NCBI GenBank assembly: GCA_900314335.1
Contig: OMUV01000083.1
Location: forward strand, 1 to 44,568
From: an uncultured Prevotellaceae bacterium
Lineage (GTDB): Bacteria > Bacteroidota > Bacteroidia > Bacteroidales > Bacteroidaceae
DNA: 44,568 nt
Reading direction: 5' to 3'
The notes below the pieces were generated by a model. That model was not told where the DNA came from. It did not search any database and saw nothing but the letters and a program-made list of their open reading frames with translations. The position numbers and the translations under genes are program-made. Positions 12,161 through 44,568 of the stretch are shown here, one piece after another. How positions within the stretch are numbered: the stretch's first letter is position 1; every line of letters starts with the position of its first letter.

Positions 12161-12321
12161 TAATGCGTGTTTTTGAAGATAAAATAAGCCTTTTTCCTGC
12201 AATAGTCTTTTCTGAGGCCCGCTGAGCCGGACAGAATGATGTGGAGAAGTGGGTAGGGAGTGGTGATGAGCCGCGTGAGGACGGCTGAGAGGGGAATAAG
12301 GCAACGCCCGCCGCGCCTGAA

Positions 12322-12433
12322 CGAGAGGCGCAGCGGCTATATGACAGGCCGGCCGGGCGTGCGCGAGAGGCGCAGCGGCTTTATTACAGCCCGGCGGAGT
12401 GAGAGGAAGATGTGTAGCGGCTATATTACTGGC
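12322..12433 (+). repeat. three imperfect tandem repeats, 42-bp period (cgagaggcgcagcggctWtatKacaggc)
   Basis: Units start at about 12322, 12364 and 12406. The periodicity also shows as 14-aa repeats (ERRSGYMTG.../ERRSGFITA.../KMCSGYITG...) in the spurious ORF 12260..12520. Confidence 0.75.
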
Positions 12434-15666: not shown

Positions 15667-16221
15667 AAAATCGCCTTTGTAAGTGTGTGAAAATCAGCGC
15701 TCCAGGAAGGCCAAAATTATGTTTGAGATAATTTAAAACGTCTCAAATGTAGTTTTCCTCATCTCAAATGTAATTTTGTGGTTTTGCGGAAGTTTTTTTG
15801 AGAAGTGGGAAATGCTTCTCAAAAAATGCGGACGAAGCGAACGTGTTTCGCATGGCGAATATAAATAGGCGGAGCAGATGAGTGAGGACTTCAAAAATAT
15901 GGATCTTAATCTATAATGCGCGAAGCTGGCTGGGAGGGCCGCCGCCTCAGCGGCCGCCAGCCGCCGCGAAAGCAAATGCGAGGCGCACGCGCTATACTAA
16001 CTTTTCGCCGCCAGGCCGCTCATTAGATTTCCCAGGCTCGCTCCCAGCCGCTGCGGGTAGCGGCCCTCCCAGTTATTTCCCGCTCACAACACTCCTTTTC
16101 AACAATGTGATTTTCAGCCCCTGCGATAGGGGCAAATTCTACTGCGAGATAAAATATTTTAGCTACGAGTTAACGAGTCGTCTACTACGAGATAAATTTT
16201 TTTATCTGCGAGTAGAATTTC
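15667..16221 (+). repeat. full-length copy (E1) of the modular ORF-free intergenic repeat family
   Basis: It shares head, palindrome, hairpin, GC-stem and R1-tail modules with 33384-33900, 43995-44568, 23224-23665 (inverted) and 1-78. No ORF is conserved between copies. Confidence 0.85.
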
Positions 16222-16292
16222 TTCTTCTCCTGATTGGCTTTTCGCCGGGGCGGGAAGCTTTCCCCGGAAGCGCAGACAGCAGTGCCTGCGGG

Positions 16293-22382: not shown

Positions 22383-22982
22383 TTATTTGCTCACGGCAAA
22401 GTATGTGTGGATAGCTGTGTCATAGTGGCTGCTCACGGCAAATGCGCGCTCGGCAAAGTGGCGACGGTCCTCGATGTCGGTAGCGGCGCCCTTGGTGTGG
22501 AGCAGATTGAGCAGCTCGGCGTACTGGGCCTTGGAGGGGATGATCACCACGTCCTTGAAGTTCTTGGCGCCGGCTCTTATCAGCGAGATGCCGCCGATGT
22601 CGATCTTCTCGATGATGTCGGCCTCCGATGCGCCGCTCTTCACCGTCTCCTCAAAGGGGTAGAGGTCTACTATTACGAGGTCTATGGACGGGATCTCGTA
22701 CTTCTGCATCTCGGCCTGGTCGCCCTCATTGTCCCTGCGGGCCAGTATGCCGCCGAAGATGCGGGGGTGCAGAGTCTTTACCCTGCCGCCCAGAATGGAC
22801 GGATAGGTAGTGAGCTCCTCAACCTTCTTGCAGGGATAACCCAGACCCTCTATGAATTTCTGTGTGCCGCCGGTGGAGAGCAGCTCCACGCCGTCGGCAT
22901 TCAGCGCCTTGAGGATGTCCTCCAGACCGTCCTTGTGATAGACGGATATCAGCGCTGTCTTGATAGGTTTTCTTTCTGACAT
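22383..22982 (-). CDS. purH: IMP cyclohydrolase (MGS-like) domain of PurH only; the AICAR transformylase domain is absent
   Basis: The 199-aa ORF is colinear with the N-terminal PurH/ATIC domain (ALISVYHKDGL..., LSTGGT, GGRVKTLHP, VDLYPF, IDIGGISLIRAGAKN). It stops right after ...SSHYDTAIHTYF, and mreB starts 40 nt later. Confidence 0.85.
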   Translation of the reverse strand: MSERKPIKTALISVYHKDGLEDILKALNADGVELLSTGGTQKFIEGLGYPCKKVEELTTYPSILGGRVKTLHPRIFGGILARRDNEGDQAEMQKYEIPSIDLVIVDLYPFEETVKSGASEADIIEKIDIGGISLIRAGAKNFKDVVIIPSKAQYAELLNLLHTKGAATDIEDRRHFAERAFAVSSHYDTAIHTYFAVSK

Positions 22983-23043: not shown

Positions 23044-23223
23044 CTAATTTTTTATATATCCCCTCTTTCTGCCGGACAAAATCACCAAAAGTAAGGCGTT
23101 ATGTCTCTCCGCGGCCATCTCCGCATGCCTGAGGGCGGGAGTATAATGGGGAAATTCTGCGTCCTCCTGTACTGCCACACCATCCGCATGCAATTAATAC
23201 AAGAAGGCATGTAGTTCATGCGC

Positions 23224-23377
23224 GACAGCTGCGATGCATATTCATGACAGCTGCGATTCATTTGCATGACAGCTGCGATTCATTTGCATGACAACTGCGA
23301 TTCATTCGCGTGACAGCTGCGATGCATTCGCATGACAGCTGCGATGCATTCGCGTGACAGCTGCGATGCATGAAATA
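23224..23377 (+). repeat. contiguous tandem array, 7 x 22 bp (gacagctgcgatKcatttgcRt), CAGCTG-centred
   Basis: Units start at 23224, 23246, 23268, 23290, 23312, 23334 and 23356 (the last is degenerate). There are no spacers between units. Units 2 and 3 are identical. Confidence 0.95.
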
Positions 23378-23665
23378 GAAGGGACATAAAATCAGGCATT
23401 GCCGAATTATGAAATGTGTCGTCATGGAATGAGGATGAATTTTCCTCTCCGGGCGCACGCCGGAATGCATGTAAGAAGAATGATTCGCTGTGCGCAGAGC
23501 GCCCTTTGCGCGTACCGCAAAAACCGTCCCGCATGCTGTGATGCTCACATAGGACCTGAGGAAAACTACATTTGAGGTAGTTCTACTCGTCTCAAATGTA
23601 GTTTTGGCCTGTGTGAAGCGCTGATTTTGAGTTATTTGGAAAGGGCCGAAAAACCGGTTTTCCGC
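23224..23665 (-). repeat. inverted copy (A) of the array-bearing variant of the intergenic repeat family
   Basis: The reverse complement aligns with 33905-34270. The core (ggccaaaactacatttgagacgagtagaactacctcaaatgtagttttcctcaggtcctatgtgagcatc.cagca.gcgggacggtttttgc) is nearly identical, and the shared atgcctgattttatgtcc precedes the 22-bp array. Confidence 0.9.
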
Positions 23666-23769: not shown

Positions 23770-25344
23770 CTACTGTCCGCTGCTGACGAAGGTGGTCACG
23801 GAGCGGGGCTCGAGCGTCGCCGTGCCTGAGGATTCGCCCACGGGCTTCAGGTTCTCGCCCGTCACATCCGAGGTGCGGTAGAGCCGCCACTTGGCTGCGC
23901 CCGCGGGGAGCGGCAAACTGATGTCGGCGGAGCCCTCGCCGTAGTTGATCCCCACGACGACCCATGTGCCGTCGGCGTTACGGTAGGCGGAGGCCATCAC
24001 GCCCGTGGGCTGTGTCTCTCCATCGGCGATGGTGTGCCAGTCCTCGCTGACCGTCATGGTGTAGCGGCGTGCGCCGGGGCGGATGAAACGGCTGTAGTTG
24101 CCCATCGTCCACATGAGTTTCGAGTCGATGGCCTTGCCCGTCTTCCAGTTGTCCGCCGAGAGGATGCGGATGAGGCCGTCCTTGTAGTCGCTTCCGGCGG
24201 CGCGCCACCACGACCAGCTCTCAGCCCCGCCGTAGACGAGGTCGTAGTGCATGATGCGCGCCACATAGAGCGCAGTCATCATCGAGGTGTCGAAGTGGCT
24301 GCCGCGGCCTATCTCCTCGTCGTTGCTCATGATGCATATCTCGCTCTGCCAGTAGGCCAGGCCGTAGCGGTCCAGCAGACGGCGGAGCCGCTGGCGGATG
24401 GCGCGCATGCTGTCTACGGGCGTGTTGGTCCAGTAGCTGTGGGCCAGCACGGCGGGCAATACGTTGCTCACGCTCCTCAGACAGGTCGCCGTGCTGTCCT
24501 TGTCGAAGAAGGTGCTCACCTCGTTGCCCCGCTGCCAGCCCGACTGATGGACGCCCAGTAGGTTTCTCAGGTCGCTGCTCTCCGGGATGGCGATGGCGGT
24601 GTTGACCTTTTCCTTGCGGAACGCCTTTGATATGGCCCTGACGAGCGTGGCTATCTCGCGGTTGGTGGCAGGCGAGCCCTCCTGCTTCGGGCCCTGCCAG
24701 TTCCAGTTCCCGTCTGGCTCGTTGACCGGACTGAGATAGTCGATGCGGATGCCGTCGTGCTCCTCGAGGCCCTTCATGCAGCGCGCCATAAACCCGGCCG
24801 CACGGTCGTAGCAGTCGGGCCTCAGATTGATCGTGCCCCCGCGGCCGGTGTTTGTGGCCAGTCCGTTGATGGTGTAGTAGACCGGCATCGAGTTGAGGAA
24901 CGCCAGCAGATAGGGCACACCGCGCTCCCGGGCCAGGCGGAGGAAACTGCGTTGCCCGGCCTGCTTTGTCCAGTCGTACGTCCCGTCGGGGCGGAGGAAG
25001 CAGTCCGTTCGTGTGTTCTGCTTGATCTGTGCGCTTTCGCCCTGCTCCGCACTGCCGGCGCCCAGGTTGAAGCGCCAGAGCGACAGACCTATACCGCGGG
25101 GCTGCCCGGAAGCGTCGTTCTCCGTGCTGAACAGCCAGTCGGCTATCTGGCGCTGCTGTGCCTCGGGCCATAGTCCGAGACGGTTCATGCTCCACGCGTC
25201 CGAGGCGCCGAAATGGAGTATCTTCTGGCGTGGCTCGCTCTGATTGATGGTGTAGACACGCCGGGCTTGGGCCGTCACGGCCGGGACGGGGCCGCAGAGG
25301 GTAATGGTGAGAAGCAGCAATTCAGGGATAACGGATTTCTTCAT
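23770..25344 (-). CDS. glycoside hydrolase family 30-like (clan GH-A) enzyme
   Basis: It has a signal peptide from MKKSVIPELLLL... (start moved from 25611 to 25344). Motifs include HFGASDAWS, VNEPDGNWNW (acid/base Glu context) and YWQSEICIMS (nucleophile Glu context), with a C-terminal beta-sandwich. Confidence 0.7.
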   Translation of the reverse strand: MKKSVIPELLLLTITLCGPVPAVTAQARRVYTINQSEPRQKILHFGASDAWSMNRLGLWPEAQQRQIADWLFSTENDASGQPRGIGLSLWRFNLGAGSAEQGESAQIKQNTRTDCFLRPDGTYDWTKQAGQRSFLRLARERGVPYLLAFLNSMPVYYTINGLATNTGRGGTINLRPDCYDRAAGFMARCMKGLEEHDGIRIDYLSPVNEPDGNWNWQGPKQEGSPATNREIATLVRAISKAFRKEKVNTAIAIPESSDLRNLLGVHQSGWQRGNEVSTFFDKDSTATCLRSVSNVLPAVLAHSYWTNTPVDSMRAIRQRLRRLLDRYGLAYWQSEICIMSNDEEIGRGSHFDTSMMTALYVARIMHYDLVYGGAESWSWWRAAGSDYKDGLIRILSADNWKTGKAIDSKLMWTMGNYSRFIRPGARRYTMTVSEDWHTIADGETQPTGVMASAYRNADGTWVVVGINYGEGSADISLPLPAGAAKWRLYRTSDVTGENLKPVGESSGTATLEPRSVTTFVSSGQ

Positions 25345-25435
25345 GGCAGGGTGTTCGTTTGACAGGTATAACAATATATTTATGCCGGCCGTGGCCTCAT
25401 TCGGGAGGCCCGCGCCGGAGGCGATGCCTTTGTTG

Positions 25436-25443
25436 CAAAAATA
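25436..25443 (-). promoter_or_regulatory. -7 promoter box (TAttTTTG) for the GH30-like gene
   Basis: The minus strand reads TATTTTTG, 92 nt upstream of the ATG at 25344. It lies inside the rejected N-terminal extension of the ORF. Confidence 0.45.
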
Positions 25444-25580
25444 GATAATTGCCTTCATTCTAAATGGAAACAACGGAGGAAAATTGCTCTTTGCACCATT
25501 TATTCCGCTTCTCAGACTGAATAAATGATAAATCTCCGTAAATAGTTGCAACATAGGGGATGCCTCAGAAAGGGTTTTAT

Positions 25581-25588
25581 TACCTTTG
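25581..25588 (+). promoter_or_regulatory. -7 promoter box (TAccTTTG) for the thioesterase gene
   Basis: The plus strand reads TACCTTTG, 28 nt upstream of the ATG at 25616. Confidence 0.45.
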
Positions 25589-25615
25589 TACATTACTGAG
25601 GCGAGAGCCAAAACT

Positions 25616-26065
25616 ATGGATGCAACTATGGACAGAGAGATAAAACGGGAAAACTACCGTCACCACATGCCCGTCCAACTGCGGTTTAACGACGTTGATC
25701 CCTTCGGGCATGTCAACAATGCAGTCATGTTCTCCATCTACGACATGGCCAAGACGGAGTACTTCCGCGCCGTGCTCGGCGATAAAATGAACGGCGGCAC
25801 GTTCGCCGTCGTGGTCAATATCAATGCCGACTTCATTCACCCCATCTACTACGGCGACAAGATCGAGATAGCCTCGGCCGTCGTGCAGCTGGGCCGCAAG
25901 AGCATCACGGTGGCCCAGCAGGCGGTCAACCTTACTTCCGGCAGCGTCGTGAGCCAGTGCCGCACGGTGCTCGTGGCCTTCTCCGCCGCTCTCAACGATT
26001 CCATCGAACTGCCAGAGGACATCCGCAAACGCTTTATCGACTACGAGAACAATATCCTGCTCTGA
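25616..26065 (+). CDS. hotdog-fold acyl-CoA thioesterase (4HBT/YbgC-like)
   Basis: 149 aa. VQLRFNDVDPFGHVNNAVMFSIYD is the typical 4HBT catalytic-Asp block. The start was moved from 25586 because the promoter box overlaps that codon. Confidence 0.8.
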   Translation: MDATMDREIKRENYRHHMPVQLRFNDVDPFGHVNNAVMFSIYDMAKTEYFRAVLGDKMNGGTFAVVVNINADFIHPIYYGDKIEIASAVVQLGRKSITVAQQAVNLTSGSVVSQCRTVLVAFSAALNDSIELPEDIRKRFIDYENNILL

Positions 26066-26176
26066 CCGCGCCGCGCTATATTATTCAGCAGGCCGTGTGT
26101 CGCGGAAAACGGAGCGCGGATGAGTCGTTAGCACGCTGGTAATACACGCGCAGAAAATCCTACCATTTATCAGAAA

Positions 26177-26237
26177 CCTCACAAAGCACCTGATTTAAAA
26201 CCACACAGATGTGATTTAAGCCAGATGCCTTGTGAGG
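26177..26237. terminator. long imperfect hairpin between the convergent thioesterase and GH operon ends
   Basis: 23-nt arms at 26177-26199 and 26215-26237 with a 15-nt loop. Three of the four mismatches become G-U pairs in a minus-strand transcript. Confidence 0.45.
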
Positions 26238-26411
26238 ATGCCCTTATCGGGGAATTAATTATCAGATAGTTAGAGAGGGGTCGGAATGCGGCTTTCCCGA
26301 GGACCGGAATGCCCGCTTTGCGGCCGCTTTCCAATGGTCGTATTCCCTTCGTTCAGGGGCGGTAATCGTGTGTTGCGAATGCTCTGCGCGTTGTGCGGGG
26401 GCGGCGCTTGT

Positions 26412-28091
26412 TCAGCGCTGTGCGAGGGAGAGCGCTACCTTGCCGTTCTTCGCGGTGACGGTCCACAGCGCGGCGCTGTCGGAGCTGCCGGGCATGGCGA
26501 GGCTGCCGGTGCCGACGCGCATGGTGTAGCGGAAGCCGTTGAAGGACTGCTGCAATGTCTTGGCGTCGTGGCTTACGACTTCGGGCAGTTTTGCCCCCTG
26601 GCTGACGGTGAGCTCGAGGCGGTAGTCGTTATCCTTGTCCGACTCTACCGTGATGCCCTTCTCGCCGAGCTCCACCCGATACTTCCTGCCGCTGCCGTCA
26701 AAGCTCACAATCATCCGTCCGGCCTTCATGCTGCCGGCGGTGGTCACGGTGGGCCTGGAGCATTTTATCTCCTTGTATTCTCCTCCCGAAGCGTCGCGGC
26801 TCATTATCCTGAGGCCTGCACGGAAGTTGCCCTTGCTCCAGAGGCAACCGTCCACGAGCGGCAGGGCGTAGTAATGGCATTCGGTCGATGTGCCGGGCTG
26901 GTCGTAGTAGAGCGATTTGAAATGCTCGTTGTAGAGCTGTATGTCGCGGAAGAGGAAGCGCTCGCCCTGCCAGAACAGGCTGGTGCGGTAGTAGCGTGTG
27001 CTGTACCATACGGTGCGGCCGCCCTGAGGCGTGTAGTCGCTCATGGCGGTGGAGGCTGTGGCTGGGGTGATCTTGTAGCGGCTGCGGAACTCGCGGCCCG
27101 TCTCCTCAAGGGTGAGCACGCGCATCTCGCCGCTCCGGGCCAGTGCGGCCAATTTGGGCATCTGCATCTCGAATCCACGGCGCATGCTTGCCCATGTGAA
27201 CGAGTTCTCCTGCCCGGCCTGGACATAGACAAAGCCGAGAGCGGGGTCACGGCTCACCGTGCCCAGATACCAGTCGGTCCAACGCTCGCTGCCGCCACCC
27301 TCTCCGTATACGGGCTCGAGGGTCGAGACGCTCTGTGTAGCGCCGCCCACACCGCAGTAGTACTGGTAGAGCGGGTCGCTGCCCAGCATGCGGAAGACGG
27401 GCACATTGATCTGCGCGCTCTTATTCTGCGCCGGCAGGTAGGCGTTGAGCAGCGAGGGGTAGTAGCCGCCCTGCCAGTAGCCGCCCCACATGGTGTAGCC
27501 GTCGGTACCCACCTGGTCGCGGCAGTTGCACGAGGCCGTGATGTGATATTTGTCGGCCATGTAGCGGAGCGTCACGGCGTCGATAAACCAGCTGCCCACC
27601 GAGGCGGGATAGCGGCCGAAGATGCGTTTGAACTCCGCCATGTAGACATCCACCAATTTGAGGCGCTCGGCGGGCGTGTAGCCCGTGGCGAAACCGACGT
27701 TGGCGTGCCAGTCCCACGGATAGCGGCCCCGCCAGTTCATGCCGGCGGCCTTGACGTGCGGTTCGGTGATCTCCCACCAGCCGCCCACCTCGAAGCCGTC
27801 GCTTATGGCCTGGCGCATGAGGGCCTGGTAGCGGGGATTGATGAGTGCGTCGTACTGCAGAAGGAATGTGCCCTTTAGGCCGTTGCGCTTCATGCTCTCG
27901 TACTGGGCTTCGGTGGTGCGGTAGAGCACATCGTCGGTCACCGCTTCGCTCCGGGGCTCTGTAAGCCGGACAAAGTTGACAATGTTGATTACGCGGTCGG
28001 GCTGCATGGCGACCCTCACCGCGGCCGGAGCCGCGAGGGTGAGCGCCGTCATTGCTGCCGCAAGGCCGAGCCTTAATATCTCTCTTTTCAT
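26412..28091 (-). CDS. secreted protein of unknown family, last gene of the rhamnosidase operon (possible uncharacterised carbohydrate-active enzyme)
   Basis: 559-aa ORF with a signal peptide and coding-like composition. It starts 15 nt after the GH106-like gene. I recognised no family signature. The N-terminal ~330 aa look like an alpha/beta barrel-type domain rich in W/Y/G, and the C-terminal ~200 aa are beta-rich. Confidence 0.7.
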   Translation of the reverse strand: MKREILRLGLAAAMTALTLAAPAAVRVAMQPDRVINIVNFVRLTEPRSEAVTDDVLYRTTEAQYESMKRNGLKGTFLLQYDALINPRYQALMRQAISDGFEVGGWWEITEPHVKAAGMNWRGRYPWDWHANVGFATGYTPAERLKLVDVYMAEFKRIFGRYPASVGSWFIDAVTLRYMADKYHITASCNCRDQVGTDGYTMWGGYWQGGYYPSLLNAYLPAQNKSAQINVPVFRMLGSDPLYQYYCGVGGATQSVSTLEPVYGEGGGSERWTDWYLGTVSRDPALGFVYVQAGQENSFTWASMRRGFEMQMPKLAALARSGEMRVLTLEETGREFRSRYKITPATASTAMSDYTPQGGRTVWYSTRYYRTSLFWQGERFLFRDIQLYNEHFKSLYYDQPGTSTECHYYALPLVDGCLWSKGNFRAGLRIMSRDASGGEYKEIKCSRPTVTTAGSMKAGRMIVSFDGSGRKYRVELGEKGITVESDKDNDYRLELTVSQGAKLPEVVSHDAKTLQQSFNGFRYTMRVGTGSLAMPGSSDSAALWTVTAKNGKVALSLAQR

Positions 28092-28106
28092 GGTATTTAT
28101 GTTTGG

Positions 28107-31100
28107 TTACTTGCTTACTGCTTCGTTCTTGATCTTATAGTCATAGCTCTCCACCTTCACCGGGCCCAGCAGGCCGGAGGTGAGGAGCTTGAAGTCCTTG
28201 CTCAGGTAGGTGAACGACTCCTTGGTGAAGCGCTCGCTCGCGGGCATGTTCTTCTCGCCGATGAGGCGGTTGCACCAGTTGTTCACCACATCCACCTCGA
28301 TGGTGTTCTTGCCCTTCCTGATGAGATTGGTGACATTGATGCGGAACGGGGCGGTCCACACGCCGCCGGCATACTGCCCGTTGACCTTCACCTTAGCCAT
28401 CGACATGACGCGCCCGAGGTCCAGATAAACTTCGCCCTGCGGGAGCTTCTTGACGTCGAAGGTGTTGGTGTAGATGGCGTGGCCCGAGAAGTATTTGATC
28501 TTGGGATCGCTGCTGCCTGTCCAGTCGTAGAGCGTGTCGAAGGTCACCTTGTTCTCCGGTCCGCCCTTGCCGGGCTCGAAGCTGACGGTCCAGGGGGTGC
28601 TCACGTCTGCCACAAGGTTGGCCTCGGGGTAGTTGGCGCCGGATGCGGGGGCTGAGGAAGCGGAGTCGCGCCACACGATGAACGCGCTCTCAAGCGGGGC
28701 GAGGCTGAGGGGCACTTCGGTGGTGGAGGTGAGCCTGGTGAACTGGGGCAGCGGGCGTGTCTCGGCCGTCTGCGGGTCCCAGAGCTCGGGTACCTTGCCC
28801 TTGATTCTGAATATGCCGCGGAAGCTGATGGGCTTCTCGCTCTGATTGGCCACGAAGTAGACATCGCCGTCGGGCAGGCCGCGGTGGAGGAATGTGACGG
28901 GCGTAGCGGCATCATCGGCGACGAAGTCGGGGCTCACGCCGAGGTCGTCCATCACCTCGCTGATAGAGGCGCCTGGATAGACGTGGCCCTTGCCGTAGGC
29001 AATGACGCGGTTGAAGAACTTCTCGCCGCTCCACAGTTCGCGCGCTATGGCCCTGACGCTGTCGTCGCAGGCCGGGTAGCCCTGCATGCTGGGCGAACTC
29101 TCCGGCGCGGGGCCTATGACGGTCAGACCGTCGCGGACCAGGTCGCGGATCTTGCGGAGCAGTTCGGGACGCATGGTCTTCTCGGGCGGCAGGACGAGCA
29201 CACTGTAGCGCATGCCGCCGTCGAGCGCGAGTTTGCCGCCGTCCATGTGAGCGTATTTCTCAAGCACTTCGGCGTTGATATAATCGTAGGAATAGCCGCG
29301 TGGTATCTCGGGCGTGCGTATGCCGGTCATCTTGGGCGCGTCCTCGCCGATGAAGTAGGCTACGTCGGCCGTGTAGGTGCCCTGCTGCAGCATATAGTTG
29401 CACCGCTTGAGATAGGAGGTGAACAGGTCGAGCTGCGAGAACCAAGTGTTGAGGCGGTTGAACTCGTTGCCGAAGGGCGCGTTGATGCCGGGCGCCGAGT
29501 CGTTGGGCTGCTGTATGTAGAGGTGGAGCAGGGTGGAGTTGATGCCTTCGGCAAAGAACTTGTCGCCTCTCAGCTTCATCTCTCCCGGGAAGCGATAGAA
29601 GTCCGGCCCGCCGCAGGTGAAGGATTCGGCCCACACTCTGCGCTTGCCGTAGATGTGTCCGCAGGAAGAGGCGATGCGATTCTCTATGTCGCCCAGGTCG
29701 CCTGCGCTCCAAAACTCGCCGGCTATCTCATCGCTCTGTCCGCCGTACTGTAGAAACTCGCCCGGGAAGCCCCAGTGACCATAGTTCTCCAGCCAGGTGG
29801 TCATGCCGTGGGCGTTGCTCACCTTTTTGAGGCCGCCGACATATTCGTAGCTCACCATGTCGGCCACGAGGCGCCTCACATCCCAGAGGAAGCGGTTGCT
29901 CTTGTCCTGCGAGTCGACCACATAGCCGTAGAAGGTGGGGATGTAGGGCACAGGGTCGTAGCCGTAGCGCTGTTTGAAGACCGGAATCATCTCGTCGGTC
30001 CAGTTCTGTCCGCCCGTCTCGTAACTGTCCTCCACAACGACCTTGAGCGTCTTGCGGTCGGAGGCCGGGATGCGGCGCAGGATCTCGCCGAGATATGCGT
30101 CGAAGTGCTCTGCGACATGCTTGGCGCTCATCTTGTCCACCTCGAGTCCCGTGGCTTCGGGCGGGGCCGGCGCATTGGTCACGCCGGTAGGCACCATGGC
30201 GGTGCGCAGTATGGTCCATTTGCCCTTGGGAGCGTTCCAGGTGAGCACGCCGTCCTTTGTCATGGCGGTCACGTCGATCACGTCGCCGGCCTTCATGACG
30301 AGGTGCGGGTCGCTGCACTCAGCCGTAGGGCTCCACATATAGTCGTACCAGAAGGGGTGGGGTGTCTGCCACATCTTCTGGAATGTCTTCTCGGGATAGC
30401 TGTCGATGACCGGATTCTCGGAGAGCGTGACGGAGCTTATCTTGTCTGCATCACCGTTGAAAACGATACGGAAGTCGGTAGAGCTTGTCTCCGGCACAGC
30501 CACCACAATCGGGGCGAAGGGCACAAAGCCCACGTTGAGCTCGCTGTTGCGGCGGTCGAGCGTTATGTCGCGCACCAGGCGATAGCTGCCGCCCGTCTTG
30601 GCGTAGAGCCTGGCGGAGTTGAGGAATGTCTGGCCCTTGCATGTGAACACGATGCTCCTGAGCGTGGCGGCCTTGTCGCTGTGGAAATCCTGCGTGGCGC
30701 TGCCGTTCTTGCTCATGGCTTTGAACGGGCTCGGGATGCTCAGGTCGGGGATGGCGAGCACCCTGACGTCCTCCGCATCCTTGGCCACATCGGGCAGCTT
30801 TACGGTGAGTTTCTTACCGCCCGTGACGCTGACGCTCGAGGAGGCGAGGTAGCGCATGGCCATGTTGGGCTTGATCCACGGGCCGCCGCTCTGGCTCCAG
30901 CCGGGGCAGTTGAACAGGCCTATCTCTATGCCGAGGTCGCCGGCCGTCTTGAGCGCCTGATGGAGGACGTCCCACCATTCGTCGCTGAACACCTTTACCT
31001 TGCCGTAGGGTATCTCGGGCGTGGCCACATTGCCTATCTGGGCGCGGTTGATGCCGGCCCGCTTCATGGCCTCCAGGTCCTTGACGACACCCTCCTTAGA

Positions 31101-31271
31101 GATATTGTCGTTCATCCAGTACCAGTAGACGGCTGTCTTCTGTGTGTCGGGGATGTTGATGAATGTCTTTTCCATCTCTTTCAGCGACGGCTGCTTGTAC
31201 TGCGCCGCTGCGGGGAGCGCCATGGAGAGCGCGAGGCTCAGCATTGTTCCCGTTATTAATGTCCTGTTCAT
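28107..31271 (-). CDS. large glycoside hydrolase, GH106-like alpha-L-rhamnosidase (tentative)
   Basis: 1054 aa with a signal peptide. The N-terminal block AVYWYWMNDNISKEGVVKDLEAMKRAGI...GLFNCPGWSQSGGPWIKP is what I associate with GH106-type enzymes. The C-terminus has a galactose-binding-like domain. Confidence 0.65.
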   Translation of the reverse strand: MNRTLITGTMLSLALSMALPAAAQYKQPSLKEMEKTFINIPDTQKTAVYWYWMNDNISKEGVVKDLEAMKRAGINRAQIGNVATPEIPYGKVKVFSDEWWDVLHQALKTAGDLGIEIGLFNCPGWSQSGGPWIKPNMAMRYLASSSVSVTGGKKLTVKLPDVAKDAEDVRVLAIPDLSIPSPFKAMSKNGSATQDFHSDKAATLRSIVFTCKGQTFLNSARLYAKTGGSYRLVRDITLDRRNSELNVGFVPFAPIVVAVPETSSTDFRIVFNGDADKISSVTLSENPVIDSYPEKTFQKMWQTPHPFWYDYMWSPTAECSDPHLVMKAGDVIDVTAMTKDGVLTWNAPKGKWTILRTAMVPTGVTNAPAPPEATGLEVDKMSAKHVAEHFDAYLGEILRRIPASDRKTLKVVVEDSYETGGQNWTDEMIPVFKQRYGYDPVPYIPTFYGYVVDSQDKSNRFLWDVRRLVADMVSYEYVGGLKKVSNAHGMTTWLENYGHWGFPGEFLQYGGQSDEIAGEFWSAGDLGDIENRIASSCGHIYGKRRVWAESFTCGGPDFYRFPGEMKLRGDKFFAEGINSTLLHLYIQQPNDSAPGINAPFGNEFNRLNTWFSQLDLFTSYLKRCNYMLQQGTYTADVAYFIGEDAPKMTGIRTPEIPRGYSYDYINAEVLEKYAHMDGGKLALDGGMRYSVLVLPPEKTMRPELLRKIRDLVRDGLTVIGPAPESSPSMQGYPACDDSVRAIARELWSGEKFFNRVIAYGKGHVYPGASISEVMDDLGVSPDFVADDAATPVTFLHRGLPDGDVYFVANQSEKPISFRGIFRIKGKVPELWDPQTAETRPLPQFTRLTSTTEVPLSLAPLESAFIVWRDSASSAPASGANYPEANLVADVSTPWTVSFEPGKGGPENKVTFDTLYDWTGSSDPKIKYFSGHAIYTNTFDVKKLPQGEVYLDLGRVMSMAKVKVNGQYAGGVWTAPFRINVTNLIRKGKNTIEVDVVNNWCNRLIGEKNMPASERFTKESFTYLSKDFKLLTSGLLGPVKVESYDYKIKNEAVSK

Positions 31272-31302
31272 AATCTATGCTTGTATTATGACTTTTTCCT
31301 TA

Positions 31303-33123
31303 TTATTTGCTTTGCTCTGCTGTACCCTTTACTATCTCCACGCCATCGGGGGCCTGAATGTCGGATACTACCTTGCCGTCGGCGCCCACCTTGTGCGAGA
31401 TGCGTATCACACCGTAGGGAGTGGGGAATGTGCCTTTGGCCCATTTCAGACGGCCGAGATGGGGCTCGATAGCCACCTTCCTGCAGCCCGGTTCCAATAC
31501 TTTTACGCCCAGCACATGAGCCGACAGCCATGTCGTGGGGCCGGAAGCCCAGCCGTGGCAGAAGGAATGGCGGTAGCCCTTGTAGCAGTAGTCGCCGTAG
31601 GCCTTGTGGATGTCCACCTTGCCCTCCGGCACCAGTTCATCGATGCGGGCGGCGTTGTCCAGCCATTTCATATTGAAGTCCTCCCAGAACGTGGTAGCGC
31701 CGAGGTCGAGCATGGCGCCCCAGTAGGCGCTCATGATATCCATCGCCTGAGTGTAGTCGCCTGCCAGGGCGAGGGCCTCGAGCATGTAGTAGCCGTAGAA
31801 GGTGGAGAAGCCGTTGGCGCCGCCGGGGAGTATCGTCTTGTCAGCGGCCTTGGCGGGCGATAGCATGCCGGCTATGGCGTTGAGGGCGGCGGCCTGTTTC
31901 GAGCCGTTGAGGTCGCGGTGACGCTTCTTCATCTTGGCCGATATTGCGGCGCACTCCGAGGAGAGGGCGTCGTTGCCCCATATCGCCTCCATCTTGGCGG
32001 CCGCGTCGAAGCCCATGGCCATAAGAGCCTGCAGTCCGGCATCGATGCCTTTCTGATTCTCCGAGGAAGGCCAGTCGAGGAAGCGCGCGTTGAGCTTCTC
32101 TTCTCCCTTGTCGTCCACGTAATTGCGGAGAGTGGCTATCAGAGCCGTCACGTAGTCTTTCTGCTCGTCGAGATAGGCGCGGTTGCCTGTGTACATGTAC
32201 CATTGATATTGGGTAATCATCCACCATATCGAGTAGCTCGAGATGGTGCACATCCACTGCGTGGGGCCGAAGCATTTCTTCGAGAGGTCCAGGCTCTTGT
32301 TGACCACGTCGTTGGCGCCGAACACGGTGGCGATGGTGAGCACCTCGGGATTGATGTCTCCAGTCCACACGAGGCGGTCGCGCTTGATGCCGTCCCAGAG
32401 GTATTGCTGCATGTTGAGGTGTACGGTGTAGGCTCCCGTTTGCCATATCTTGTTCAGACGCTCGTTGTCGCACTCAAAGCTGCCCAGATAGGGAATATCG
32501 CGGTAGCGGAAAGCGGCTCTCACCTCCTGCAGCAGCAGGTCGGTATTGTCGCCCAGCACATCGATGCGCGCGAAGCGGAAGCCCGAGTTGCCGCACTCAG
32601 CTACGCCCAGCCAGGGCACCTCGAGCGTGAAGTCGCGCATGGCGTGGTCGTTGGTGGCTCCGTTCTTGCCGTCGATGTCGCACATGGCCTCCTGGGCCGA
32701 CTCGCCGAAGCGTATGCGCAGCTTCACCGTGCGCGAGGCCGACTGTCCTGTCACTATCTGCAATCCTCCCTGCAGCTCTGTGCCGAAATCGAGGAGGATG
32801 GAGCATGATGCGCCTTTGCCGTTCCTGAGGTGCGCGTAGCTCACGCCCGCCAGAGCGGCCTGCCCGTAGTGATTCTTGAGCAGCACGTCCTCGCCGTCCA
32901 TCGTAGCGCCGTTGTCGCAGTGCTTCCACAGTATGCGTCGCGGCAGGATGTAGGAGATGACCCTGCGGTCCGTCTCCATCTGTACGCCTTTGAGTACGGG
33001 GATTACGTTCTGTGCGCCGCCATTAGTAGCGGCGCCGCCTGCGGAGGTGCTGTTCTGAGCCCGGAGTGTCGGCAGTGCGACAAGCGTCGTGGCGCAGATG
33101 CAGATAATTTTTAGAAAATTCAT
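31303..33123 (-). CDS. GH78-like (alpha/alpha)6-barrel glycosidase (alpha-L-rhamnosidase-related, tentative)
   Basis: It has a signal peptide from MNFLKIICICATTLVALPTLRAQ (start moved from 33210). Motifs include YLWDGIKRDRLVWTGD and FCHGWASGPTTWL, as in GH78 catalytic domains. Confidence 0.65.
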   Translation of the reverse strand: MNFLKIICICATTLVALPTLRAQNSTSAGGAATNGGAQNVIPVLKGVQMETDRRVISYILPRRILWKHCDNGATMDGEDVLLKNHYGQAALAGVSYAHLRNGKGASCSILLDFGTELQGGLQIVTGQSASRTVKLRIRFGESAQEAMCDIDGKNGATNDHAMRDFTLEVPWLGVAECGNSGFRFARIDVLGDNTDLLLQEVRAAFRYRDIPYLGSFECDNERLNKIWQTGAYTVHLNMQQYLWDGIKRDRLVWTGDINPEVLTIATVFGANDVVNKSLDLSKKCFGPTQWMCTISSYSIWWMITQYQWYMYTGNRAYLDEQKDYVTALIATLRNYVDDKGEEKLNARFLDWPSSENQKGIDAGLQALMAMGFDAAAKMEAIWGNDALSSECAAISAKMKKRHRDLNGSKQAAALNAIAGMLSPAKAADKTILPGGANGFSTFYGYYMLEALALAGDYTQAMDIMSAYWGAMLDLGATTFWEDFNMKWLDNAARIDELVPEGKVDIHKAYGDYCYKGYRHSFCHGWASGPTTWLSAHVLGVKVLEPGCRKVAIEPHLGRLKWAKGTFPTPYGVIRISHKVGADGKVVSDIQAPDGVEIVKGTAEQSK

Positions 33124-33155
33124 CGTGTCGGTATTGATTATTTTTAGTCTGACTG

Positions 33156-33163
33156 CAAATTTA
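33156..33163 (-). promoter_or_regulatory. -7 promoter box (TAaaTTTG) for the GH78-like/GH106-like/unknown operon
   Basis: The minus strand reads TAAATTTG, 33 nt upstream of the ATG at 33123. Confidence 0.5.
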
Positions 33164-33383
33164 GGCAAAAAAGAAATAATCTGCCACTTCTGAGGAGAAT
33201 AACTGAGCATTATAAAATGGAAAATTCTCGTCCGGCTCCATAAGATGTTAATGAAGGAGGCGAAGCCGGAGAAGAATGCGTCGGCCCTGAGAGCGCGAAT
33301 GCGTCTGCTCCGCTCGCGTGGAAACGTGTGCCGGAAAGGGCGATACGGCCTTATATATAATGTACCGCCGCCGTGCGAAAAAC

Positions 33384-33900
33384 TGCCTTTGTAACTATAT
33401 GAAAATCAGTGTCTGCGGAAGGCCATAACTACATTTGAGACGAGTAGAACTACCTCAAATGTAGTTTTCCTCAGGTCCTATGTGAGCATCCCAGCACGCG
33501 GGACGGTTTTTTGAAGTGTTGAGAATGCCTTTCCAATAATGGGGAAAAGGGTGCTATTTTCGAATGGCGAAATTAAATCAACCGTATAGGAGGATAACAA
33601 CATATTGATGTATGATTCGTGTTCTGCATATGAGCGAAAAATAACTGGGAGGGCCCCTGCAGCGCGGCCCGCCAGCCGCCGCATAAAGTATAGAAATGAA
33701 TAATGCGCAATGCACCTCTTTGAATATCGTTGGTCCCCTGCATCGCAAATTACTTCGCGCTTTGCCATATTGGGCATGCGGCCGCTGAGGGCAGCGGCCC
33801 TCCCAGATAGAGCCGCTCACACTATAAATTTTCGCTCTTATCAGCCCGCCCCGCAATATGGCAAATGGAATAGAATGCGCATTTATGCGACCCCGGAAAG
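33384..33900 (+). repeat. copy B1 of the intergenic repeat family (head, palindrome, degenerate hairpin and GC-stem modules; no 22-bp array)
   Basis: It shares the head and palindrome with B2/A, the middle stretch with E1/E4, and a 16-bp long-range inverted repeat (33645-33660 / 33791-33806). Confidence 0.85.
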
Positions 33901-33904
33901 AGCG

Positions 33905-34270
33905 ATTTTTGCCTCTTTGTAACTATATGAAAATCAATGTCCCCGGAAGGCCAAAACTACATTTGAGACGAGTAGAACTACCTCAAATGTAGTTTTCCTC
34001 AGGTCCTATGTGAGCATCTCAGCACGCGGGACGGTTTTTGCTATGTGCGCAAACGGCGGTAAGCGCACAGCGAATTTTTCATCTTTCATGTATTCTGACG
34101 TGAGCCCTGAGAGCGAAATTTATTCTCATCCCCTGATGCAGTCTTCTTAATGTGGTATGCCTGATTTTATGTCCTATTAATTCTATGCACGACAGCTGTC
34201 ATGTAAATGCATCGCAGCTGTCGCGTAAACGAATGACAGCTGTCACGCAAATGCGTCACAGCTGTCATGC
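33905..34270 (+). repeat. copy B2 of the intergenic repeat family (array-bearing variant), inverted partner of 23224-23665
   Basis: See 23224-23665. It follows B1 in tandem. Confidence 0.9.
34184..34266 (-). repeat. tandem array of about 4 x 22 bp, the same unit as 23224-23377 in opposite orientation
   Basis: Units end in ...cagctgtc at 34200, 34222, 34244 and 34266. The cores are near-perfect palindromes (tgacagctgtca). It lies about 40 bp downstream of the GH20 stop. Confidence 0.9.
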
Positions 34271-34306
34271 ATAGATTATGTGCCTTGTGTTTCTGTCCTT
34301 GCGGAA

Positions 34307-43994: not shown

Positions 43995-44290
43995 AAAATC
44001 GCCTTTGTAAGTGTATGAAAATCAGCGCCCCCGGAAGGTCAAAATTATGTTTGAGACGTTTTGAAATACCTCAAATGTAATTTTGCTCGTCTCAAATGTA
44101 ATTTCCGGGTTGTGCGGAAGTTTTTTTGAGAAGTGGTGGATGCCTTCTCAAATAACGGGAGAAAAGGCTATTGTTTCGGACAGCAAATTTATCCCGGCGG
44201 AGCAGGGGATTGAGGACATATATTATAGGAAATCTTTCCTGCGCACAACGATAGCCCCGCCCGCACTTGCGACGCCTCCAATGGGCCGTT
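43995..44290 (+). repeat. copy E4a of the intergenic repeat family (short form: head, palindrome and hairpin modules)
   Basis: It aligns with 15667-15900 and is about 97% identical to 44291-44520 over the core (44040-44215 vs 44336-44511). Confidence 0.9.
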
Positions 44291-44568
44291 TTGTACCCCT
44301 TGTAAGTACGTGTAAATCAGCGCTCCCGGAAGGCCAAAATTATGTTTGAGACGATTTGAAATACCTCAAATGTGATTTTACTCGTCTCAAATGTAATTTT
44401 CGGGTTGTGCGGAAGTTTTTTTGAGAAGTGGTGGATGCCTTCTCAAATAACGGGAGAAAAGGCTATTGTTTCGGACAGCAAATTTATCCCGGCGGAGCAG
44501 GGGATTGAAGACCTCTGTATGTGGAAATCCTGTATCGTTTTGCGCGAAGGCGGGCCGGGAGTACGAAA
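44291..44568 (+). repeat. copy E4b of the intergenic repeat family, tandem to E4a and running off the window
   Basis: It has the same modules as E4a. Its end (ttttgcgcgaaggcgggccgggag) aligns with the entry into the GC-stem module of E1 (taatgcgcgaagctggctgggagggcc). Confidence 0.9.

Follow-up and report, generated by a model that had tools for sequence, protein, structure and literature searches.

Several known DNA-binding proteins act on tandem arrays of short sites, to which small dimers that repress their own genes bind cooperatively. ParR acts in this way on parC (R1, pSK41) and omega on heptads, and further such arrays are the 43-bp repeats of sopC, bound by SopB, and the tandem metboxes, bound by MetJ. 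The gamma origin of R6K carries seven 22-bp iterons, and iterons are asymmetric sites, recognized by Rep monomers on a replicon in which AT-rich DNA and DnaA boxes lie alongside. The ends of Tn7 and Mu contain multiple 22-bp transposase sites, recognized by TnsB and MuA, respectively. REP/BIME sequences and MITEs are dispersed extragenic palindromes, and REPs alternate in orientation.

The DNA analyzed here (the window) is a 44,568-nt stretch of contig OMUV01000083.1 from an uncultured Prevotellaceae bacterium. A preliminary description of it noted a tandem array of 22-bp units and offered three architectures: plasmid or phage iterons, multi-site transposase-binding ends, or a cooperative regulator array. 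We found that the last of these fits the array, whereas the first two do not. The array belongs to a dispersed module, and related arrays lie directly upstream of genes that encode a subset of HU-HIG proteins. HU-HIG is a large, Bacteroidetes-specific family whose function was left open by the one published analysis of it, in which its members were judged unlikely to be sequence-specific transcription factors; lineage-specific expansion and loss of HU-HIG genes are known (PMC5499826). Our search of the literature (for Bacteroidales 22-bp tandem palindromic repeats, for GACAGCTGTC, and for HU with inverted repeats) returned no description of the arrays.

RESULTS

Two arrays form the outer ends of an inverted repeat

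Direct reading of the sequence reveals seven contiguous 22-bp units, each initiated by GACA(G/A)CTG (array A; Table 1). Tandem Repeats Finder reports the same array at positions 23224-23371 (period 22, 6.7 copies, 92% matches, score 219). Units 2 and 3 do not differ, unit 4 carries CAACTG, and unit 7 departs from the others after 16 nt. The motif GACAGCTG occurs 12 times in the window, compared to 2.3 ± 1.7 times in shuffled sequences, and all 12 occurrences are confined to array A or to a partner array, B. The preliminary description was correct in counting seven contiguous units and in placing them about 240 bp from the start of purH' (241 bp from the start codon at 22982 on the minus strand to the left end of array A). 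It was also correct that the array is not a CRISPR, since the units are contiguous, with no unique spacers of the CRISPR type between them. Its reservation that the repeat might be misassembled can be set aside, because seven metagenome assemblies, independent of one another, all contain the identical seven-unit array.

Arrays A and B are the outermost parts of an inverted repeat of about 430 bp (23204-23652 versus 33948-34286, 78-87% identical). Array A is the outer end of one repeat copy, as previously described, and the other arm ends in the four-unit array B. Array B is situated with its nearest palindromic core 29 nt downstream of the stop codon of a GH20 gene. The small open reading frames within the body of the repeat are not conserved between the two arms and have neither a Pfam hit nor a tblastn hit to HU-HIG. 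The right flanks of both arrays keep the motif CAT(T)AAAATCA. The 44-bp palindrome at the inner end of the arm represents a separate dispersed family, with further copies at positions 15713, 33425, 33953, 44041, and 44336; judging from its 15-bp stem and T-run, it looks like a bidirectional terminator hairpin.

Together, arrays A and B bracket 10.8 kb of DNA. According to Pfam, the bracketed block encodes a GH30 protein, a thioesterase (on the plus strand), an unknown protein of 559 amino acids, a GH106 rhamnosidase, and a GH78-like rhamnosidase; assignment of the block to a SusC/SusD-type locus was ruled out by Pfam. The genes that surround the array region are housekeeping genes (mreBCD, PBP2, rodA, and ligA). 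In agreement with the preliminary description, which saw no gene for a cognate binding protein, Pfam identified no Rep, Par, transposase, or integrase gene among the major open reading frames of the window. Searches with jackhmmer and tblastn detected no HU-HIG gene or pseudogene in the window, including beside either array, and we therefore refer to arrays A and B as orphan copies.

TABLE 1 Coordinates of the two array modules and of the genes between them (positions in the window)
Feature	Position	Strand	Basis or remark
Left flank of module A, AAGGCATGTAGTTCATGCGC	23204..23223	+	Flank comparison, 16 loci and the HU-HIG upstream copy
Array A, 7 × 22-bp units, orphan copy	23224..23377	+	No HU-HIG gene alongside
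Body common to repeat arms A and B, 87% identical, begins GAAGGGACATAAAATCAGGCAT	23378..23561	+	Apparently non-coding
44-bp palindrome, AAAACTACATTTGAG-N14-CTCAAATGTAGTTTT	23562..23605	.	Inner end of repeat arm
Gene block between the two inverted modules	23770..33210	-	Pfam
Body B and 44-bp palindrome, inner part of repeat arm B	33953..34178	-	Repeat comparison
Array B, 4 × 22-bp units, inverted relative to A	34179..34266	-	Repeat detection and direct reading
Left flank of module B, ACAAGGCACATAATCTATGCAT on the minus strand	34267..34288	-	Flank comparison

Each unit is a 16-bp dyad followed by a variable spacer

In every unit, an imperfect dyad of 16 bp (CATGACA-RY-TGCGATG) precedes a variable spacer of 6 bp. 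The per-position information content, computed on 53 distinct units, is concentrated in the 16-bp block, where GACA, TG, and CGATG reach 1.4-2.0 bits and CAT reaches 1.3-1.6 bits. The central RY dinucleotide is free to vary, and the spacer carries little information. The period is exactly 22 bp, which upholds the earlier claim that the units are phased on one face of the DNA. In units of the window type, an asymmetry of 2 bp (GA versus CG) is fixed, an unusual property for the site of a symmetric dimer.

Phased dyad arrays lie upstream of HU-HIG(wHTH) genes

The most common Pfam family among the 105 non-redundant nearest neighbors of related arrays is HU-HIG (four genes). In all four cases, the array lies 60-190 bp upstream of the start codon, and the encoded proteins are only 21-34% identical. 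These proteins, hereafter HU-HIG(wHTH), have an HU/IHF-like domain at the N terminus and, fused to it, a winged helix at the C terminus; P. distasonis WP_008779936.1, encoded next to rpsL, and B. finegoldii WP_195399327.1 are examples from culturable species. In gut Bacteroides, Phocaeicola, Parabacteroides, and Prevotella/Segatella, the HU-HIG family has expanded and its members diverge fast.

We examined 20 HU-HIG(wHTH) genes, obtained from the genome scan (4 genes), from a protein search (6 genes), from L160 and the cluster L176-L183, and from plasmid or "phage" records (8 genes). Three to eight dyad sites with an exact 22-bp period are located upstream of the start codon in 19 of them, while the remaining gene, L191, has only a weak version of the phased sites. 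In a scan for four phased sites (maximum 28, background 7-8 ± 3), 13 of the 20 genes score 19-25, a further six reach 15-17 (L185 at an off-target position), and L191 scores 14. Because seven of the 20 genes belong to one clade (52-86% identity), the set represents about 12 independent groups (<40% identity between groups). The distance from the array to the ATG is fixed within HU-HIG clades, and the 22-bp period is kept across lineages whose proteins share about 20% identity.

The half-sites of these arrays vary with lineage (TGACA, CCACT, TATCA, TCAC, and GTTGAC). They also differ between two paralogues in a single B. finegoldii assembly (TATCA at L184 versus TGACA at L188), in which tblastn lists five HU-HIG paralogues. 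Given that half-sites differ between paralogues, no single shared factor reads all arrays. The simplest reading of these sequences is that the binder of each array would be the product of the adjacent gene. The start of the recognition helix varies with the type of site, being (K/R)YM in proteins with GACA sites and T-x-x-TA in those with TCAC or TATCA sites. However, L137 and L022 have the same recognition helix and different half-sites (CCACT versus TGACA), and, therefore, the winged helix alone may not set specificity. In the AF2 model, the C-terminal winged helix is confident (pLDDT about 90), and the top Foldseek matches of this domain are MarR, ArsR, and ScpB family proteins together with a plasmid centromere-binding winged helix. 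A sequence search of PDB with P0060 produced no match.

The Bacteroidetes -7 consensus is TAnnTTTG. At HU-HIG genes, the arrays are found downstream of a predicted -7 box and before the ATG, and this consensus, which is the sole basis of the prediction, would place the arrays downstream of the transcription start.

One of the HU-HIG genes connects these observations to the window. An array of the window type, with six to eight units and the same left flank, precedes the HU-HIG gene P0123 (locus L160) and stops 25 nt short of its ATG; this gene comes from metagenome samples that also contain contigs of the window's organism. Positions 5897-6072 of L160 match positions 23206-23380 of the window with 81% identity over 176 nt (blastn). 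When the alignment of the body with the HU-HIG gene is extended, significance is limited to the last unit and the next 45 nt or so, and the CAT(T)AAAATCA stretch of the body recurs between the HU-HIG upstream array and the ATG. The P0123 gene has a GC content of 0.59-0.60, as does the window, and the locus around the gene is low in GC.

A proposed model of cooperative, autorepressing binding

We propose, as the probable explanation, that the arrays are phased operators bound cooperatively by an HU-HIG(wHTH) protein that represses its own gene, and that array A is an orphan copy of such an operator array. We infer that the HU-HIG protein is the binder from its adjacency to the arrays and from the co-variation of sites and proteins. 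The reference copy of this dispersed cis-element module would be the one just upstream of the HU-HIG(wHTH) start codon. Each unit would hold one 16-bp dyad operator with the half-sites CATGACA and CATCGCA, and, due to the 6-bp spacer that follows each operator, neighboring operators would face the same side of the DNA at a distance of exactly two helical turns. HU-HIG(wHTH) dimers could then bind neighboring operators cooperatively and cover about 90-170 bp. At its own gene, such a complex would sit between the predicted -7 box and the ATG and act as a roadblock, providing negative feedback. Orphan copies such as A and B would serve as extra high-affinity landing pads, mostly after stop codons or between convergent genes, where they may prevent read-through, anchor or bridge DNA, or do no more than titrate the protein. 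Being long direct repeats, the copies also change in unit number and recombine, and the chromosome is thereby rearranged.

The module is dispersed, varies among strains, and recombines

A search for further arrays, which the preliminary description had recommended, uncovered 12 or more additional loci, in the same organism or a close relative, that carry this unit and these flanks, and the module has 14 or more copies in all. The left flank is kept at nearly all copies (consensus AAGGCACATAGTTCATGCAT), and the flanks of the module form an imperfect inverted repeat, AAGGCACATAGTTCATGCAT ... ATGCATGAACTATGTG. In the window's organism, 8 of 13 module copies lie between convergent genes. When orphan arrays are classified by the orientation of their neighbors, 31 are convergent, 30 tandem, and 7 divergent (orthologous loci included), and they are positioned 17-80 bp after stop codons. 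A scan of genome contigs revealed three to eight palindromic units with a 22-bp period in many Bacteroidales. There are several such arrays per genome, their palindrome arms are lineage-specific, and the units of other lineages are mostly near-perfect palindromes. An apparent association of the arrays with a WbaP-like sugar transferase was traced to one orthologous locus of the S. copri complex and is no general link.

Unit number of array A varies between strains (2, 4, 6, or 7 units), while array B is constant at four units in 10 assemblies. In strain L006, the block next to purH' is absent and a four-unit array is retained. This array is a hybrid, with two units from the beginning of A and two from the end of the cinA-side array (L163), which indicates recombination between arrays and not excision.

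Orphan arrays have no common neighboring gene. Of 83 arrays, 15 have the motif TAnnTTTG at a distance of 25-110 nt; three of these 15 are the upstream arrays of HU-HIG genes, and most others belong to one S. copri orthologous group. With most of them having no nearby promoter motif and no common neighbor, orphan arrays may be functionless relics.

Such relics are the subject of the strongest competing explanation, in which the module is a selfish MITE- or REP-like repeat, or the upstream remnant of a lost HU-HIG paralogue, and array A is a neutral, unstable relic. For orphan copies, this explanation overlaps with the one that we prefer. We regard it as unlikely. In its favor are the many copies with the same flanks and their imperfect inverted repeat, the preference for "safe" sites between convergent genes, the 2 to 7 units of array A, the CAT(T)AAAATCA motif kept to the right of A and B, and the documented expansion and loss of HU-HIG genes in individual lineages (PMC5499826). 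However, transposase, integrase, and RAYT genes are not enriched among the 105 non-redundant neighboring genes, and RAYT is absent from the families common to two or more of them. No target-site duplication is definable from the flanks of the module copies, because the conserved flank runs into A-rich sequence, and no HU-HIG pseudogene accompanies A or B. The invariance of array B also argues against this explanation, as do the near-perfect palindromes (about 16.7 of 18) that orphan arrays keep where they occupy orthologous positions within the S. copri complex.

Other explanations of the arrays

The units could alternatively act as RNA, transcribed within the 5' region of HU-HIG genes or within a 3' UTR at orphan sites, with tandem hairpins serving as terminators, RNA stabilizers, or a translational control element. 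This possibility, which we consider decidedly improbable, would accommodate the near-perfect palindromes of other lineages, the position of the arrays downstream of the predicted -7 box at HU-HIG genes, the location of orphan arrays shortly after stop codons and their enrichment between convergent genes, and the strong folding of array B (z = −7.7). Yet array A folds no better than shuffled sequence on either strand (z = −0.4 and −1.1), and its unit has two fixed mismatches beside the would-be loop. Mismatches on the sense strand have no G·U bias (A·C 31 versus G·T 16). The central dinucleotide varies freely, as at an uncontacted dyad center, and the exact period across lineages, together with the clade-fixed distance to the ATG, points to helical phasing of DNA. 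Rfam 15 offers no match either: searches of the window at the gathering threshold, and E-value searches around the arrays at nine loci, yielded only sub-threshold miRNA-like hairpin noise.

A very unlikely reading is that the glycoside-hydrolase block is the cargo of a composite or Tn7/Mu-like element, with arrays A and B as its multi-site transposase-binding ends. Their inverted, outermost position around 10.8 kb, the unit length, which equals that of TnsB and MuA sites, and the missing block of L006 are what such an element would predict. No transposase gene, however, is present inside or near the block or elsewhere in the window, and none is enriched among the 105 neighbors. The purH' site of L006 is not an empty site, since it still keeps an array, and that array is the product of recombination. 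Moreover, the other module copies are solitary and not paired, and the block is never found elsewhere or inverted in 10 + 10 assemblies.

A plain, unstable minisatellite without a sequence-specific partner is equally hard to sustain and highly improbable. The preliminary description had named random unit counts and a lack of positional conservation as signs of such a repeat. The first is seen to the extent that array A, with units 92% alike, has 2, 4, 6, or 7 of them in different strains, but array B stays at four. The second is contradicted by the fixed placement of arrays before HU-HIG genes across genera and by the 22-bp phasing that is kept while half-sites change. Conservation within the unit is position-specific, and the flanks are common to many loci.

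The view that the array represents replication-origin iterons or a chromosomally integrated plasmid or phage partition centromere is already close to refuted: for all its resemblance to the seven direct repeats of the R6K gamma origin, and with pNOB8 centromere-binding protein among the weak Foldseek matches of the winged helix, the window has no Rep, ParA, ParB, or ParM gene (Pfam, major open reading frames), no DnaA box (TTWTNCACA), and no GC-skew switch of the kind that the preliminary description proposed to look for, the cumulative skew rising monotonically through the region, while the array region has no similarity to 72,556 plasmids (PLSDB) or 50,697 phages (INPHARED) by blastn (a pattern scan of viral contigs gave a single, S. 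copri-like match), and 14 or more copies reside on one organism's chromosome, here among housekeeping genes.

DISCUSSION

Significance of the arrays

Genes of the winged-helix subclade of HU-HIG are almost always preceded by a phased dyad array whose half-site code differs from paralogue to paralogue. The arrays are a concrete candidate DNA target for these proteins and a first indication of which DNA this little-understood family may read. Scattered through genomes that include those of the S. copri complex, they also constitute a class of intergenic repeat that had gone unannotated in major gut bacteria, and they are a source of structural variation between strains, both in unit number and in deletions or rearrangements by recombination between arrays.

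A bolder extension, which we consider quite improbable, is that the arrays and the HU-HIG(wHTH) proteins together belong to an unrecognized Bacteroidales-wide system. Each fast-evolving HU-HIG paralogue would then have a private operator code, and copies of its array would be distributed over the chromosome, often in pairs on either side of accessory blocks, in the manner of A and B around the rhamnosidase/GH30 block. By bridging or coating such arrays, the protein would insulate, silence, or loop the DNA between them, and the arrays would double as programmed recombination points at which blocks are reshuffled or deleted, of which L006 would be an example.

Comparison with known systems

The ends of Tn7 and Mu resemble the present locus in the 22-bp unit and in the two inverted arrays that are outermost on a 10.8-kb segment. 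They differ in that no transposase is found here, the sites are contiguous and dyad-symmetric, and the strain without the segment is an array recombinant. The R6K gamma origin shares the seven head-to-tail 22-bp repeats and a related copy before the gene of a DNA-binding protein. Unlike iterons, however, the units here are dyads, are present in 14 or more chromosomal copies, and have no rep gene or DnaA box.

Like the present arrays, REP/BIME sequences and MITEs are palindromic, species-specific, multi-copy, arrayed, enriched behind stop codons and in convergent intergenic regions, and subject to recombination. The units described here are nevertheless strictly head-to-tail at 22 bp, no RAYT or transposase lies beside the arrays, and one array copy always accompanies the gene of a specific DNA-binding protein.

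A further comparison is with the arrays of ParR, omega, SopB, and MetJ. Our arrays depart from those systems in having no partition ATPase or plasmid and many orphan chromosomal copies, and the presumed binder is an HU/IHF-like protein with a winged helix instead of a ribbon-helix-helix protein or ParB. What they have in common is the architecture: contiguous sites on one helical face and in variable number, an array that separates the gene of the presumed binder from its promoter, and a site that co-varies with the protein.

Array A and its inverted partner

Tandem Repeats Finder detects a 22-bp tandem repeat in the window, and direct reading resolves it into the seven units of array A. Units 2 and 3 are identical, and unit 7 diverges beyond its first 16 nt. 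The sequence GACAGCTG occurs 12 times in the window (2.3 +/- 1.7 in shuffles), with all occurrences confined to array A and to the inverted array B. The two arrays form the outermost parts of a ~430-bp inverted repeat that encloses minus-strand genes for GH30, a 559-aa unknown protein, a GH106 rhamnosidase and a GH78-like rhamnosidase. A truncated purH (purH') begins 241 bp downstream of array A and is followed by mreB, mreC, the PBP2 gene and rodA; at the other array, the GH20 stop codon is followed after 29 nt by the nearest palindromic core of array B. Because the units are contiguous, the arrays are not CRISPR. The preliminary description had correctly given the seven 22-bp units, the identity of units 2 and 3, the placement ~240 bp upstream of the purH'-mreB start and at the outer end of repeat copy A, and the distinction from CRISPR. 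It was also right that the window holds no gene for a binding protein, as a Pfam search of its major ORFs turned up no gene for Rep, Par, a transposase, an integrase or a regulator.

Coordinates of the arrays and of other repeats and genes (window positions unless a locus from another record is named)
Feature	Position	Description
Array A, Tandem Repeats Finder	23224-23371	period 22, 6.7 copies, 92% matches, score 219
Array A, direct reading	23224-23377	seven units beginning GACA(G/A)CTG
Array B	34179-34266	four units, inverted relative to array A
Inverted repeat	23204-23652 / 33948-34286	78-87% identical
purH'	22383-22982 (-)	199 aa; MGS-like domain, first 58 positions of AICARFT/IMPCHase profile
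Second repeat family	15713-15777, 23562-23605, 33425-33468, 33953-33996, 44041-44105, 44336-44400	palindrome AAAA(C/T)TA(C/T)(A/G)TTTGAG-N14-CTCAAATGTA(G/A)TTTT
87-nt direct repeat	1-87, 16144-16230	94% identical, 16 kb apart
42-bp tandem units	12306-12431	three units, first GCCCGCCGCGCCTGAACGAGAGGCGCAGCGGCTATATGACAG; copies 2 and 3 are 83% and 64% identical to it
C25-like paralogues	1944-4136, 4252-6204 (-)	adjacent; peptidase C25-like domain and HEAT repeats
Hybrid array, L006	3672-3759	four units
cinA-side array, L163	9706-9837	intact
HU-HIG gene, L176	5001-5600	L160-type
S. copri orphan arrays	L107 1730-1795; L102 1492-1557; L074 7858-7945	examples from set L012-L127
Inverted repeat, L186	about 420-520	31 bp, GCCTAACGACCATGAACAGCTCTGCTTACGG ... 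CCGTAAGCAGAGCTGTTCATGGTCGTTAGGC

The mreB gene starts 40 nt past the purH' stop codon. The exact purH' protein is present in 120 blocks of the assembly collection, so its truncation is a fixed feature of the organism rather than an error. The palindrome of the second repeat family, which is also dispersed, takes the form partly of 21-bp tandem half-sites and is embedded in longer repeats of 125-233 nt. It looks like a bidirectional terminator hairpin and carries the Bacteroidetes -7 motif TAnnTTTG on both strands; the organism has related copies at further loci (L155, L167, L170, L171, L174). The 87-nt repeat, also found in L171 and L174, holds the palindromic motif AGATAAAATATTTTATCT twice, and the 42-bp units are intergenic, between a GH3 gene and a TonB-dependent receptor gene. 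The C25-like paralogues contain DNA repeats (76-83% identical, offset about 2086 bp) and have DUF6850, DUF4876 and TonB-dependent receptor genes downstream.

Related arrays are widespread in Bacteroidales

The preliminary description had proposed looking for such arrays elsewhere in the genome, and across species they are numerous: a search for three ACAGCTG cores spaced 22 bp apart, run on a single genome from each bacterial species, found at least 116 loci. Among the matches listed, the majority are from Bacteroidales (Segatella copri complex, Prevotella, Parabacteroides, Tannerellaceae, Phocaeicola, Bacteroidaceae), with several loci per genome. Each unit in these listed matches combines a short spacer with a 12-18-bp palindrome that has CAGCTG at its center; at offsets 2, 4, 5 and 6 from the core, palindromy is roughly double what chance would give, and the arms are uniform within a genome and lineage-specific between genomes. 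With orthologous loci each counted, the listed arrays lie between 31 convergent, 30 tandem and 7 divergent gene pairs, often 17-80 bp beyond a stop codon. Nearest genes among the matches listed are diverse housekeeping and glycan-degradation genes, and the commonest neighbor family is HU-HIG (PF18291; 4 of the 105 non-redundant nearest genes in the listed matches).

The Segatella copri complex has at least five distinct loci of orphan arrays (arrays without an adjoining HU-HIG gene), built of GCACAACAGCTGTTGTGC plus a 4-nt spacer and kept at orthologous positions across many species-level genomes; one separates a WbaP-like sugar-transferase gene from its convergent neighbor. The search pattern also caught non-palindromic 22-bp tandem repeats containing CAGCTG, such as AGAGAAGCCAGCTGTACTTGAT (3-5 cores per locus) and eight copies of CACATATTCAGCTGTCATTTTC, in L028, L031, L045, L092 and L120 (Prevotella sp. 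CM_BacPre1006.2), L034 (Fuerstiella) and L025 (Treponema zioleckii). These depart from the dyad design and probably represent repeat families with no relation to it.

Phased dyads precede HU-HIG(wHTH) genes

The four HU-HIG neighbors, from Phocaeicola, two Parabacteroides species and one Prevotella, encode products that are 21-34% identical, and every one carries an HU-like domain together with a C-terminal winged helix (wHTH). In all four, the array lies 60-190 bp upstream of the start codon. We sampled six further HU-HIG(wHTH) proteins by profile search of a protein database and eight more by tblastn (annotated Bacteroides, Phocaeicola and Parabacteroides records and unverified "phage" clones; full-length by hmmsearch). 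When upstream regions were scored objectively for four dyads at 22-bp phasing (maximum score 28, background 7-8 +/- 3), the result was 19-25 for 13 of 20 genes, 15-17 for six (L185 was scored off-target and its sites were read by eye) and 14 for L191, where CANNTG cores at a 22-bp period are still present. Not all of the 20 genes count as independent, as seven form a single clade (52-86% identical) and L160 and L177 are one gene cluster, leaving about 12 groups at <40% identity. The Phocaeicola/Bacteroides clade has a fixed layout, with a predicted -7 box (TTACATTTGTAA, which fits the Bacteroidetes consensus TAnnTTTG) at about -192, four dyad centers at -124, -102, -80 and -58, and then the ATG.

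The central dinucleotide of the dyads is free (CAGCTG, CACGTG, CAAATG, CATCTG and others), and the half-site differs by lineage: TGACA is common, and we found CCACT in L137, TATCA in L184, TCAC in L185, L187 and L190, and GTTGAC in L189. One B. finegoldii assembly carries five HU-HIG paralogues (tblastn), and the two compared have unlike sites (TATCA in L184, TGACA in L188). Therefore, the array reader must differ gene by gene, and these sequence comparisons suggest the adjacent gene's own product as the simplest candidate. The start of the predicted recognition helix varies with the site, (K/R)YM occurring with GACA and T-x-x-TA with TCAC or TATCA; the exception is L137, which has the same recognition helix as L022 and different sites. 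AlphaFold models a confident winged helix (residues 140-208, pLDDT about 90), for which Foldseek returns weak matches to the MarR, ArsR and ScpB families and to a plasmid centromere-binding winged helix.

Upstream of HU-HIG(wHTH) genes (L128, L140, L184, L186), the neighbor is in several cases a divergent VapE-like, DUF5906, DUF3874 or BT4734/BF3469-family gene, typical of Bacteroides integrated mobile elements, and in others an AAA_14 or AAA_15 ATPase gene or hsdM. These neighbors fit the HU-HIG "conflict system" neighborhood noted previously (PMC5499826). In L186 (Bacteroides sp. CACC 737 plasmid pCACC737_3), the array is constructed differently, as one inverted repeat that makes up three 22-bp-phased sites upstream of the HU-HIG gene.

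A window-type array precedes an HU-HIG(wHTH) gene

The window-type site follows the HU-HIG array design with less symmetry and consists of CATGACA-RY-TGCGATG and a 6-bp spacer. Measured on 53 distinct units, information content is 1.4-2.0 bits for GACA, TG and CGATG, 1.3-1.6 bits for the trailing CAT and about 1.2 bits for the central RY, and it is low in the six spacer positions. A metagenome scan with a two-unit window-type pattern found 23 loci; beyond arrays A and B, at least 12 others have 3-8 units with the unit sequence and flanks of the window. The flanks that complete this module are AAGGCACATAGTTCATGCAT and, at the opposite end, ATGCATGAACTATGTG with GGGAGA or CCTT after it. Most module loci occupy convergent intergenic regions (8 of the 13 for which both neighbors were called), and several have further dispersed repeats in common with the window.

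At one locus, L160, a 199-aa HU-HIG(wHTH) gene (hmmsearch E = 6e-41) is preceded by a seven-unit window-type array that stops 25 nt short of its ATG; this array is 81% identical over 176 nt to window positions 23206-23380. The array upstream of L160-type genes has 6-8 units by strain, CARYTG cores at -47, -69 and so on, and the left flank seen in the window. Proteins identical or near-identical to that of L160 (P0121/P0123) occur in 51 blocks of the assembly collection, including samples ERZ28637838 and ERZ27279900, which also contain contigs of the window's organism. The L160-type gene (L176-L183) has a GC content of 0.59-0.60, like the window, and is surrounded by a glycosyltransferase locus of GC 0.38-0.43 that looks like a capsule locus. 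Next come a 401-aa ABC-type ATPase matching the candidate defence protein PDC-M29A of PADLOC and AriA and then a 178-aa protein; some strains also carry the Thoeris genes for ThsB (TIR) and ThsA (Macro) at about 3.5 kb downstream. We infer that the L160-type gene belongs to the window's organism, and array A very probably belongs to the HU-HIG(wHTH) array class.

Strain variation and recombination between arrays

Among public assemblies carrying the exact purH' protein, the identical seven-unit array A is present in seven, and the array has six units in one and two in one. L006 has four units; its homology to the window locus breaks off inside the array, and its far flank is wholly different and carries prs, a peptidase M24 gene, tsaD and cinA. 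Array B, located via the GH20 protein, has four units in 10 of 10 assemblies, with a 1-bp deletion in one. This strain comparison indicates that array A is length-variable, that array B is stable, and that neither is an assembly artefact. The variation in unit number raised in the preliminary description thus holds for array A (7, 6, 4 and 2 units) and not for the constant array B, and the misassembled repeat that it named as a possible objection is ruled out by the seven assemblies with the same seven-unit array.

In L163, the cinA-side flank of L006 is joined to a six-unit array with another partner flank. The L006 array, which links cinA directly to purH', is a hybrid of units 1-2 of array A and the last two units of the L163 array. 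Because of this composition, L006 is a crossover between two dispersed arrays and not an empty site. L155 and L172 have a common right flank and different left flanks and may represent a second such event.

Proposed mechanism and alternatives

We propose that HU-HIG(wHTH) dimers would bind adjacent operators cooperatively on one helix face, coating 90-170 bp. At the protein's own gene, the coat would form a post-promoter roadblock and give negative feedback. Orphan arrays such as A and B would be extra high-affinity sites, which may serve to titrate the protein, to bridge DNA or to stop read-through where operons end. On the sequence evidence, we lean toward the HU-HIG protein as the binder of the arrays, and we doubt that an orphan copy has any specific function; orphan arrays might just as well be relics, devoid of function, left by duplication of the module or of a paralogue. 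Against the mechanism stand the unlike sites of L137 and L022, the fixed asymmetry of the window-type unit, and the doubts about sequence-specific regulation expressed by the authors of the HU-HIG study (PMC5499826).

Since the arrays follow predicted promoters at HU-HIG genes and stop codons elsewhere, they may well be transcribed, and they could act as RNA. We consider this improbable: array A folds no better than shuffles (z = -0.4, -1.1), its unit has two fixed mismatches adjoining the would-be loop, sense-strand mismatches have no G.U bias (A.C 31 versus G.T 16), the exact two-turn period is kept across lineages at about 20% protein identity, and the dyad center is free to vary. These points favor recognition as DNA, and Rfam has no family for the array. 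The iteron/origin and transposase-site readings of the preliminary description do not fit, as the window has no rep gene among its major ORFs and no DnaA box or GC-skew switch (cumulative skew climbs monotonically across the region), the array region matches none of 72,556 plasmid or 50,697 phage records, and transposases and integrases are absent both from the major ORFs of the window and from the families common to at least two of the 105 non-redundant nearest neighbors among the matches listed. The window also yielded no tRNA genes.

The literature searched does not describe these arrays, nor does it give a DNA target for HU-HIG proteins. Dispersed palindromic repeats are a known type of element, as are phased operator arrays in front of an autoregulated gene; three features appear to be new, namely the protein family, the 22-bp code, and the pairing of a gene-linked reference copy with numerous orphans.
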